Part shown: one piece after another, positions 17,912 through 23,583 of the stretch
How the letters are laid out: the number at the start of each line of letters is the position of its first letter
Numbering within the stretch: position 1 is the first letter of the stretch
Assembly: GCA_964598765.1 (NCBI GenBank)
Contig: CAZRCZ010000001.1
Coordinates: 342,327-406,326 of the forward strand
Length of the DNA: 64,000 nt
Reading direction: 5' to 3'
Source of the DNA: an uncultured Candidatus Sumerlaeota bacterium
GTDB taxonomy: Bacteria > Sumerlaeota > Sumerlaeia > MVZB01 > JAJFLK01
Notes under the pieces: model-generated
What the model saw: only the letters and a program-made list of their open reading frames with translations
What the model was told of the DNA's origin: nothing
Databases searched by the model: none
Program-made: the position numbers and the translations under genes

Positions 17912-18019
17912 CGCGATTTCATCAAAAGAGGATGAGGCGTTCCTCCCCTGAATCAGGGCGCGTATTAATCCTTGCGGGTATTCCGCAACCCCTTCGGGGT
18001 TGAATGGGCATCGCGCCAA

Positions 18020-18081
18020 CCCAAGGTAGCTTCGCATGGCTCGGCAACCTTGGGCTTCGATTCGGGACGCCGTTGGCGTCC
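18020..18081 (+). repeat. REP-like double-hairpin element, copy 1
   Basis: cccaaggtagc...ggcaaccttggg hairpin followed by gggacgcc-gtt-ggcgtcc hairpin; ~80% identical to the reverse complement of 21185-21248. Confidence 0.8.
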
Positions 18082-18106
18082 TCGGAGCATCTTCCAGTTT
18101 ATGAAA

Positions 18107-21184: not shown

Positions 21185-21248
21185 GGAACGCCAAGAGGCG
21201 TTCCGGAACAAAGCCCAAGGTCGCCGAGCGTAGCGAGGCTACCTTGGG
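21185..21248 (-). repeat. REP-like double-hairpin element, copy 2 (abuts RAYT gene)
   Basis: ggaacgcc-aaga-ggcgttcc hairpin plus cccaaggtcgcc...ggctaccttggg hairpin; reverse complement aligns with 18020-18081. Confidence 0.8.
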
Positions 21249-21301
21249 TCCCCAAAAGCCACGATTGCAACCTCAACGAGGTTGCGGCATGATTTTCTCC
21301 G

Positions 21302-21712
21302 ATGCCGCAGTCACTTTCCGCCGTTTATCTTCATTTGGTTTTCTCCACGAAAGACCGGCGCCCTCTTCTTCGCGACCACACCCTGCGCGAAAGGTTACAC
21401 GCCTACTTGGCCGGCATTTCCAATCAATTGGATTGTCCTGTCCTCATTGTGGGAGGCGTCGAGGATCACGTTCACTTGTTGGCGCGGTTCGGACGGACGG
21501 TGACTCAGGCTGAATGGGTGAAAGAATTGAAGCGGGTGTCGAGCATCTGGCTTAAGAAACGCGGACGCCAATACGCCGATTTTGCATGGCAATCGGGATA
21601 CGCCGTATTTTCGGTGAGCCAATCCAAATTGAATCACGCGAAAATATATATCGCGCAACAGGAGGACCACCATCGGCGATTGAGATTTCAGGACGAGAGA
21701 CGATGTCAGTGA
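21302..21712 (+). CDS. IS200-like / REP-associated tyrosine transposase (RAYT) family protein, possibly C-terminally truncated
   Basis: AVYLHLVFSTKDRRPLL, HuH motif VEDHVHLL, YAVFSVS, IAQQEDHHRRLRFQDE. Ends soon after FQDE, shorter than I would expect for this family (from memory). Confidence 0.75.
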   Translation: MPQSLSAVYLHLVFSTKDRRPLLRDHTLRERLHAYLAGISNQLDCPVLIVGGVEDHVHLLARFGRTVTQAEWVKELKRVSSIWLKKRGRQYADFAWQSGYAVFSVSQSKLNHAKIYIAQQEDHHRRLRFQDERRCQ

Positions 21713-21862
21713 TGAACGGCACAAGTTCACTTGGCAGCCACATGGTTCGCAATTCACGATCATTGAATATGTGCCGCAGGACAGACTTGCGATCCGTCTC
21801 AAGAAACCTCCCCCAAAGATCGATCGTTCCAAACTACTGAATGAATTGCAGTTTGACAGTTC

Positions 21863-22339
21863 TTGGGTGGAGATACTCAAATCCTAAAAGTGGACACGGT
21901 CAGCGCGAAAAAACGCTCATGGATAATGGCTCAGATAAAATCGGCCGGGAATGAATCAACCGAGGGGCGTCTGGCAAAGCAGTTCCGTAACCACGCAATC
22001 AAGGGTTGGAGGAGAAAATCCAAGCTACTTGGCAAACCGGATTTTGTATTTCGTCGCGCTCGCGTTGCCGTTTTCGTGGATGGATGCTTCTGGCATGGAT
22101 GTCCCACCCATTGCAGATTGCCCACTACGCGACGGGCTTATTGGACGAACAAAATTGCCAAAAACATGCGGCGAGACAGAAATATCCGTGCGGCTCTCAG
22201 GCGTGGCGGGTGGACGGTATGGCGCTTTTGGGAGCATGAAATTCGCTCACCCTCAGTAGAAGAAAAACTTCGAGGATTAAGGCGAACAATTCGAGTCAGG
22301 TCGAAAAAGATGAATCCTCGAGTCGGTCGTCAAGAATGA
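21863..22339 (+). CDS. vsr: Very-short-patch-repair endonuclease (Vsr)
   Basis: Motifs KRSWIMAQIKS, GKPDFVF, AVFVDGCFWHGC, WTVWRFWEHE match Vsr. ORF-track start is TTG; GTG 21890 or ATG 21922 possible. Confidence 0.8.
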   Translation: MGGDTQILKVDTVSAKKRSWIMAQIKSAGNESTEGRLAKQFRNHAIKGWRRKSKLLGKPDFVFRRARVAVFVDGCFWHGCPTHCRLPTTRRAYWTNKIAKNMRRDRNIRAALRRGGWTVWRFWEHEIRSPSVEEKLRGLRRTIRVRSKKMNPRVGRQE

Positions 22340-22475
22340 GACTGATGGCCACGCGGACGCTGTCGCGGCATTCCGCAATGGATTCGCCTTGGCCATTCGC
22401 GCCGGGAACTTCCGGGCAGTAGCCGATGTAAAAGTTCTTTCCCTTTTCAATGATGACGGTAAATTCGCGATGCAT
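22296..22475 (-). CDS. hicB: HicB-like antitoxin domain protein (UPF0150), no adjacent HicA
   Basis: MHREFTVIIEKGKNFYIGYCPEVPGANGQGESIAECRDSVRVAISLIL fits HicB N-terminal fold. Start at ATG 22475 with GGGAG-like RBS upstream; longer ORF-track version overlaps apbE. Confidence 0.55.
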   Translation of the reverse strand: MHREFTVIIEKGKNFYIGYCPEVPGANGQGESIAECRDSVRVAISLILDDRLEDSSFST

Positions 22476-22542
22476 TGAGAGACTCCCTTCGTCTTCGCTA
22501 ATGATATAAGGAAGCGGCAGTATCGCGCCACTCAAACGACGC

Positions 22543-23583
22543 TCACACTCTTCGATAGGATGGAAACTCTCCCACCTGAACAAACTTCAATCCGCCGTTG
22601 GCGTCGAGATCGAGGTTGAGGCCGGAGACGCCCGCCGGAAGAAGATCGGGCGATGCGTCGCGTCCGGCGACAAACAGCGCGGTCGAGGCCGCGTCGGCTT
22701 CCATGCAGGTCGCGGCGAAGGCCGACGAACTGAGATACGTGTTAGATCGTTCGCCTGATTGCGGGTTGAACTTGTCCATCCGTTCCGGCCTGATTTTGAA
22801 GTCGGAGAAATCATAGTTGCCCGACGTGGCGATGGCCTGATTGGCCAGCTCAAAAATCGCGCAGACTCCCGCGCGGGTCGGGTCCTGCAAACCGACTTTC
22901 CAACCGGGCGCGTCGGTCGGACAGCCATGCACGTAGAGGTCGCCGCCGGCCTCGACGATGGCGTTGGCGATTCCCCATTTGTCGCGCAGGACGGCGATGG
23001 CGCGATCCACGGCGTAGCCTTTGGCGATGCCGCCAAGATCAAAACCCATTCCCTTGCGTTGCAATCCCAACTGACGCCCCTCGATCCGAATTTGGCGGTA
23101 ATCCACGAGTTCGCGCGCCTCGGCGATCGTGTCCGGAATGTCGTCGGCCTCGGGATGCAATCCGCCAGCCTTGAGCAAGGGAAGCGCGGTGATGTCGAAC
23201 AGCGCGCCGGATTGTTTCGCCCAGCGCAATCCCGATCGAACGACCTCGATGATGCGGGGATCCACTTCCAACATTTCGCTCCCCGCGACGCGATTGACGC
23301 GCGAGAGGGGTGTGAACCGCCGATGAATGCTCATCAAATCCTCGACGAGTTGGATTTCCGCGATGGCGTCGAGAACGGCCTCGCGCGCCTTGTTCTCCTT
23401 CTCGCCGATGACGACGAGGTGAACGACGGTTCCCATCGCCTGCCATGCCTTGCGGCAATCCTTGTCGGCGACCGACGCCGCCCAGCTTCCTTTCGGGATT
23501 CCCAGCGAGAAAACGGACGATCCGATGCCGACCATGCCAAGTTGCTTCAAAAAATCGCGGCGATCAGGTGATTTGAATGTCAT
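22543..23583 (-). CDS. apbE: FAD:protein FMN transferase (ApbE family), Tat-exported
   Basis: Tat motif RRDFLK at N-terminus; ApbE core (GFDLGGIAKGYAVDRA, TSGNYD). Confidence 0.85.
   Translation of the reverse strand: MTFKSPDRRDFLKQLGMVGIGSSVFSLGIPKGSWAASVADKDCRKAWQAMGTVVHLVVIGEKENKAREAVLDAIAEIQLVEDLMSIHRRFTPLSRVNRVAGSEMLEVDPRIIEVVRSGLRWAKQSGALFDITALPLLKAGGLHPEADDIPDTIAEARELVDYRQIRIEGRQLGLQRKGMGFDLGGIAKGYAVDRAIAVLRDKWGIANAIVEAGGDLYVHGCPTDAPGWKVGLQDPTRAGVCAIFELANQAIATSGNYDFSDFKIRPERMDKFNPQSGERSNTYLSSSAFAATCMEADAASTALFVAGRDASPDLLPAGVSGLNLDLDANGGLKFVQVGEFPSYRRV

Follow-up and report, generated by a model that had tools for sequence, protein, structure and literature searches.

Here, we ask why the Y1 (HuH) transposase gene at positions 21302-21712 of the window, i.e., of the whole 64-kb stretch of DNA that was analyzed, ends only four residues after its FQDE motif. 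The open reading frame (ORF), on the plus strand, encodes 136 amino acids, including HVHLL at residues 56-60 and RLRFQDE at residues 126-132, after which only RRCQ, a TGA and, directly behind it, a second TGA follow. The initial annotation had described the ORF in the same way, i.e., with HVHLL, a conserved body and a stop soon after RLRFQDE. We argue that, very probably, a single deletion fused a 3'-truncated Y1 gene of the subclass 1.2 type to a 5'-truncated neighbor and that the product is likely a recent, inactivated remnant. The feature is thus unremarkable in kind: a truncated gene of a mobile element, from a transposase family that is already known. What changes is mainly the mechanism, which is a gene-fusing deletion and not a frameshift, and with it a downstream DERH string is removed as a false lead. 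The features on which the argument is built are collected in Table 1.

Table 1. Features of the locus (positions in the window, unless a related locus is named)
Feature	Position	Strand	Basis or remark
Three-hairpin module, second copy	17984-18084	+	Pattern searches, sequence, fold (z = -3.1), alignment
Three-hairpin module, upstream reverse copy	21185-21285	-	Inverted repeats, fold, alignment
8-bp perfect inverted repeat, TGCGGCAT/ATGCCGCA	21283-21309	+	3' arm holds the ATG; significance unverified
Y1 (HuH) transposase gene, conserved part, codons 1-132	21302-21697	+	Pfam, NCBIfam, nhmmer
Deletion junction	21695-21702		Homology to the transposase up to 21697, to the ~244-aa gene from ~21702
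Four non-family codons (RRCQ) and TGA	21698-21712	+	Out-of-frame reading of the neighbor fragment
Orphan 3' fragment (residues ~186-244 and stop) of a conserved, unannotated ~244-aa gene	21702-21887	+	Homologs
Intact vsr, very-short-patch repair endonuclease	21890-22339	+	Pfam Vsr, 5.7e-16; TIGR00632, 105 bits (cut-off 97.85)
Loci of the ~244-aa family	L086:1-624, L082:5486-6222, L084:1428-2131

The transposase core and its lost C-terminal tail

Several lines of evidence bear on the class of the transposase. First, residues 6-120 align with positions 3-121 of the 121 positions of Pfam Y1_Tnp (PF01797; E 1.7e-24), a full-length match with 86.7 bits against a cut-off of 23. Second, the ORF passes the NCBIfam IS200/IS605 model NF033573 (63.1 bits, cut-off 55) and fails the RAYT model NF047646 (REP_Tyr_transpos; 22.4 bits, cut-off 80). 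Third, in an alignment to ISDra2 TnpA (2xm3/2fyx), by which the catalytic Tyr was assigned, H56-V-H58 (H56, 21467-21469; H58, 21473-21475), Y116 (21647-21649; within K-I-Y-I-A-Q-Q) and Q120 (21659-21661) align with ISDra2 and DR_0177, whose Tyr motif is QYIE(N/S)Q. All residues of the catalytic core are accounted for in this way and, therefore, the whole core is present. H123 and H124 are present as well, and residues 116-124, YIAQQEDHH, have the subclass 1.2 signature Y---Q--HH; where class-2 RAYT proteins have the Tyr motif Y---NP, the ORF reads YIAQQE. Thus, of the initial description as RAYT/IS200-like, the second half holds and the first, in the strict sense, does not. Subclass 1.2 proteins also have a C-terminal domain, from which the ORF keeps FQDE and has lost the following 19 residues; because this domain is gone from the copy under study, its assignment to subclass 1.2 rests on the core. 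Judged by these features, the family fits TnpA-Y1 "subclass 1.2" and is nearer to IS200 than to RAYT, although many homologs carry the label 'RayT' at JGI.

The relatives, mostly from metagenome-assembled genomes (MAGs) of Verrucomicrobiota, Planctomycetota and Acidobacteriota, define the length that the protein should have. Exactly 151 amino acids are found in 70 of the 120 best homologs, nearly all of which have 19 residues after FQDE, and homologs longer than 151 amino acids look like over-extended start calls. In species-representative genomes, 64 of 80 loci encode exactly 151 amino acids, and 75 of 80 encode an intact protein of 148-161 amino acids, whose tail is the same even at 52% identity. 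The typical ending is FQDE-LRALLRKHEIE[WF]DE[KR]YVWD; hence, the initial expectation that the family runs on for ~20 residues to a DERY-type motif was accurate, the actual values being 19 residues and DE[KR]YVWD. The 136-aa ORF falls short of its relatives by 15 residues, and 19 residues of the family are missing from it. These are by no means the least constrained ones: among 132 distinct full-length sequences, mean column identity is 0.79 in the tail and in the core alike, and R134, D145, E146, Y148 and W150 of the tail are each at least 95% conserved. For a full-length relative, AlphaFold predicts a structure (mean pLDDT 77) whose best Foldseek matches are the TnpA proteins of ISDra2, IS608 and IS200 (E ~4e-7). 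In this model, the tail folds into two helices, one at 129-139 and a short one at 146-149; the pLDDT of the tail, 62-72, is too low for its contacts to be deduced.

No other sequence shares the end point of the ORF, and the homologs that do end early do so at scattered positions. Approximately 6% of the related loci (L022, L040, L050 and L074) are disrupted, each at a different position, and two database proteins (P0093 and P0033) end eight residues after FQDE. Such scattered ends reflect sporadic decay and thus neither a natural short form nor a conserved isoform. The protein cluster of the 136-aa ORF has one member, and nothing more than 78% identical to the ORF was found in species-representative genomes.

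The window holds one copy of the Y1 gene and, within its 64 kb, no multi-copy identical insertion sequence was seen. Some genomes have two or more diverged copies that are 64-69% identical to the query, which is more in keeping with multiple old paralogs in each genome than with recent bursts of the kind seen with insertion sequences. Among the related loci, L016 and L029 share contig JBKJKE010000235.1, and L006 and L073 share the MAG JANOQV01. At its 5' end, the gene in the window has a perfect inverted repeat (TGCGGCAT/ATGCCGCA) that places the transposase ATG inside a hairpin arm; in the upstream flanks of the homologs, inspected by eye only, no obvious counterpart was seen. The arrangement recalls IS200 of Salmonella, in which a stem-loop occludes the start site.

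The junction and the genes downstream of it

To locate the end of the homology, a family DNA profile was built from 64 codon-aligned genes of 456 nt. In nhmmer searches, positions 1-397 of this model align without a gap over 21302-21698 (E 3.4e-98), and the alignment stops exactly past the GAG of FQDE. Beyond this point, the tail was searched for at three levels. A DNA profile of the last 72 nt of the family gene, applied to 21698-21900 with a threshold as lax as E ≤ 1000, has no match; for the 19-aa tail, a protein HMM likewise has none in any frame of the six-frame translation of this interval; and Smith-Waterman alignments of 21698-21890 to the 3' ends of ~70 homologs are scattered, mutually inconsistent and, by comparison with shuffled sequences, at chance level. 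We also considered that an inserted cassette displaced the tail and the right-hand module beyond vsr and rejected this idea, as the window holds no other match to either except the module copy at 17984-18084.

What lies downstream of the junction is part of another gene. The 58-aa translation of 21711-21884 has nine homologs (E 3e-17 to 1e-8, coverage 88-95%), all of which are themselves partial gene calls, and the fragment keeps every invariant block of the family, FTWQPHGSQFTI as well as SWVEI. Related loci show more of the gene: at L086, its frame is open from the start of the contig for 200 residues, and at L082 and L084, it is split by a frameshift or a run of N. With a reconstructed sequence of 245 amino acids, 2,168 homologs were found at E ≤ 0.001; among the best 120 of these, the commonest length is 244 amino acids, and Pfam domains and informative names are absent throughout. 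In tblastn searches with the proteins P0126 and P0127 and with the L082 reconstruction, the alignments to the window start at 21702. Only residues 186-244 of the ~244-aa protein are present (21702-21881), and its N-terminal 185 residues are found nowhere in the 64-kb window. As far as sequence comparison can place it, the junction is, within a few nucleotides, the point at which a 3'-truncated Y1 gene is joined to a 5'-truncated neighbor. The Y1 frame enters the fragment of this neighbor out of frame and, therefore, the ORF stops early, with a TGA after four codons.

The fragment also accounts for the DERH string (21711-21722) that the initial annotation had noticed in another frame immediately downstream. 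The string is real and lies in the +1 frame, inside the fragment, and its H matches a position ahead of FTWQ that is often H in the ~244-aa family (..SNEH-[IV]-FTWQ, ..GARH-A-FTWQ). As a remnant of the lost tail, DERH is ruled out by the tail HMMs and by alignments no better than chance.

The gene context of the ~244-aa family offers a clue to its role. In two contigs (L082 and L084), the gene is located just downstream of a C5 DNA methylase, and in L086 it is directly followed by vsr with an overlap of 8 nt. Searches of Pfam, NCBIfam and PDB sequences with the ~244-aa protein gave nothing significant, the N-terminal region of EcoKMcrA being the only weak PDB match (E 0.03). From gene context only, we consider the gene a candidate for a restriction endonuclease or for another kind of restriction-modification partner. 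In one metagenome contig (L083:2153-2837), a protein (P0122) with the C-terminal part of the family and a different N-terminus overlaps a PDDEXK_3 nuclease gene; this arrangement may represent another, independent 5' replacement of the ~244-aa gene.

In the window, the stop codon of the fragment (21885-21887) abuts the start of the intact vsr gene, a pairing as in L086. The 64-kb window contains no C5 cytosine methylase, and vsr may have been orphaned by the same deletion. A convergent small ORF on the minus strand (22296-22583) overlaps the 3' end of vsr by ~44 nt; its product (FTVIIEKGKNFYIGYCPEVPGANGQGES...) presumably resembles HicB-type antitoxins, and a 60-aa version of it has no Pfam match at E ≤ 0.001. 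The Y1 gene, the fragment, vsr and this small ORF (21300-22600) have a G+C content of 0.48-0.55 compared to 0.58-0.64 in the flanking housekeeping genes, which fits an accessory islet.

Flanking modules and the history of the locus

IS200/IS605 TnpA enzymes act on single-stranded DNA hairpins at the ends of their elements. Upstream of the Y1 gene, we identified a reverse copy of a module composed of three hairpins (arms 21185-21192/21197-21204, 21214-21225/21237-21248 and 21267-21274/21278-21285) that is predicted to fold as single-stranded DNA with z = -4.1. Its central hairpin ends 54 nt 5' of the ATG, and the commonest spacing in the family is 54-73 nt. Because the second copy in the window lies away from the Y1 gene, between the convergent genes fmt and dnaB, the module is dispersed in the genome.

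In the flanks of the relatives, the module recurs as a composite element of ~100 nt. Hairpin 1 reads CAACCnC-loop-GnGGTTG and is followed by a spacer of ~20 nt; hairpin 2 reads CCCARGGTAGC...CAACCYTGGGCT, with an A/A mismatch within GGTAG; and hairpin 3 is variable in sequence, often AATCCC-TTT-GGGATT. Within 260 nt of the gene, the central hairpin is found upstream in 52, downstream in 48 and on both sides in 41 of the 75 intact loci. In the commonest layout, the gene lies inside an inverted pair, the reverse copy ending 54-73 nt ahead of the ATG and the forward copy beginning 39-65 nt past the stop codon; L016 (a module at 2877-2991 and a copy downstream of the stop) is an almost perfect example of it. 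For 61 modules, 59 of them from related loci, RNAalifold predicts three hairpins, and compensatory double changes occur in 13 of 20 stem pairs, with few pairs broken. The module around most relatives thus covaries and suggests that subclass 1.2 Y1 proteins have REP-like partner elements of their own. Rfam gave zero matches over the whole window at gathering thresholds, and a full-text literature search for the module strings returned unrelated primer sequences only, which by itself does not prove novelty. We consider the chances evenly balanced that, in Verrucomicrobiota, Planctomycetota and Acidobacteriota, subclass 1.2 genes and the inverted three-hairpin modules paired with them constitute a yet-undescribed REPtron-like system. 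Both these modules and the large, unannotated family of ~244-aa partners of methylase and vsr genes are leads of more interest than the truncated gene itself.

In the window, the left-hand module of the Y1 gene is present and the right-hand one is absent. Compared to the reverse complement of the gene's own upstream module, the downstream DNA scores 14, with shuffled sequences averaging 14.3; it has no unusual fold (z = -0.06) and no match to the module pattern. A remnant of the forward module downstream of the gene was therefore rejected, and the deletion would have removed the right-hand module, too.

Altogether, these findings support a model for the history of the locus. No relative more than 78% identical to the ORF was found with the ancestral arrangement, so the state before the deletion is reconstructed from distant loci. 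The ancestor would have consisted of a reverse module, a Y1 gene of 151 codons and a forward module, followed at some distance by the ~244-aa gene and vsr; a C5 methylase may have lain between them, and the whole would be expected between the HpcH-like and ApbE genes. A deletion from just past codon 132 of the Y1 gene to approximately codon 185 of the ~244-aa gene would have taken away the final 19 codons of the Y1 gene together with its stop codon, the right-hand module and all DNA in between. The frame of the Y1 gene would then have run out of frame into the 3' fragment of the neighbor, adding RRCQ before the TGA, and the predicted product has the complete catalytic core minus the subclass-specific C-terminal domain. 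By its sequence, the junction at 21697/21698 is the trace of a deletion or of an equivalent rearrangement, and would look the same after one event and after several. Of the two causes proposed initially, deletion is borne out by the clean end of the homology at 21697/98, whereas a frameshift finds no tail remnant in any frame to support it.

The state of the two fused pieces informs on timing and function. The Y1 body has no deviations at the 36 columns that are at least 98% conserved and one at the 47 columns that are at least 95% conserved, which is typical of intact members. The orphan fragment, with neither a start codon nor its N-terminus, is likewise still open and keeps every invariant residue. 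Taken together, the undegraded Y1 body and the undegraded orphan fragment fit a recent event better than long maintenance; the Y1 body by itself is equally compatible with continued selection. The conservation of the tail suggests that the protein lost its function with it.

The alternative that fares best is that the short form is a maintained functional variant, domesticated or deregulated, whose core works without the tail. We consider this improbable. In its favor, the Pfam core is complete with all catalytic residues, the highly conserved columns are free of deviations, and ISDra2 TnpA itself ends ~8 residues past its Tyr. Moreover, in E. coli TnpAREP, a non-homologous extension of ~25 amino acids blocks the active site and its removal raises cleavage (PMC3479197); cut back to residue 152, the protein exceeds its full-length form in activity, the extension being auto-inhibitory and dispensable for catalysis (PMC3479197). 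By analogy, the tail-less 136-aa protein could still be active. A more specific version, in which the tail is regulatory and the 136-aa protein would be a competent, perhaps deregulated, single-stranded DNA nuclease acting on the two modules in the window (21185-21285 and 17984-18084), appears slightly less probable still. However, the tail is conserved like the core across relatives as distant as 52% identity, the end point is unique to a one-member cluster and the junction, searched for as a 24-mer, is absent from JGI metagenome contigs, the other short homologs stop elsewhere, and the right-hand module has been lost together with the tail. In addition, the startless fragment of the neighbor is as undegraded as the Y1 body, pointing to recency rather than selection. 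Thus, of decay and domestication, both raised initially, decay is the most likely, and nothing that we found speaks for domestication of the truncated form.

It is very improbable that the junction is an assembly chimera or a sequencing artefact joining unrelated loci. Metagenome-type assemblies can misjoin at repeats, and a Logan contig of SRR12313480 (L001) breaks inside the upstream module, at 21224. However, this contig, from a different pipeline, spans the junction and is 100% identical to the window over 21224-22361; there is no repeat at the junction, the only modules being the two in Table 1; and coherent genes continue on both flanks. The contig, which possibly derives from the window's own reads, excludes an error particular to one assembler, though not an artefact in the reads themselves.

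Least credible of all is a small frameshift or internal deletion, possibly programmed, that shifted the DERY motif into the +1 frame as DERH: although the string follows FQDE by 13 nt in that frame, occurs naturally as a form of the family motif in P0091, L070 and L081, and lies where L061 matches 15 of 17 nt (21710-21726), the tail models are silent at 21698-21900, the pairwise DNA matches are what chance gives in ~70 comparisons, neither VWD-stop nor a forward module follows, no recognizable slippery site is read at CAG-TGA, and the +1 frame has strong homology to a different family of proteins (H-[KIV]-FTWQPHGSQFTII...SWVEI, E down to 3e-17). Because this frame belongs to another gene, the frameshift is refuted as far as sequence analysis can show, and the programmed +1 frameshift, for which a test was proposed initially, falls with it, the ~244-aa family being unrelated and having no homology to the tail. 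In annotation, a mark of truncation is warranted for the 136-aa ORF, and 21702-21887 should be labeled as a gene fragment.

Relation to known transposase systems

The closest published group is subclass 1.2, which comprises IS200-like proteins with the motif Y---Q--HH, a conserved and specific C-terminal domain and a low copy number (Quentin et al. 2018, BMC Genomics 19:475, PMC6006769). The Y116-IAQ-Q120-ED-H123-H124 motif of the window copy and the C-terminal domain of its relatives agree with this description; the window copy itself differs in having lost that domain. Subclass 1.2 is described as generally devoid of typical terminal secondary structures (PMC6006769), whereas most relatives analyzed here are bracketed by inverted three-hairpin modules. 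Because terminal structures are reported as generally absent, the association of such modules with subclass 1.2 may be undescribed.

With the TnpA proteins of the IS200/IS605 family (IS608, ISDra2; PDB 2a6m, 2vhg, 2xm3), the ORF shares the HuH/Y1 fold, in line with the Pfam and NCBIfam cut-offs that it passes. In contrast to these proteins, to which sequence identity is only ~21-26%, the family adds a conserved tail of 19 amino acids, and its flanking structures, composite modules of three hairpins, are also found at a distance from the gene, as at 17984-18084. Partial sequences are frequent among copies of the IS200 family (Quentin et al., PMC6006769), and the locus resembles such decayed copies in having a truncated ORF and lacking one element end. 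It differs from them in that the truncation is precisely explained by the fusion to an identifiable fragment of a neighboring gene.

The layout of the family is REPtron-like and in this respect is reminiscent of RAYT/TnpAREP systems (E. coli YafM, PDB 4er8; Nunvar 2010; Bertels and Rainey 2011; Messing 2012), in which a Y1 gene likewise lies between inverted palindromic repeats that are also dispersed intergenically. Both have a C-terminal extension past the IS200 core, but the tails are not homologous. Finally, the repeats themselves set the two apart: instead of single REPs of 20-40 nt, the modules described here are three-hairpin composites of ~100 nt.
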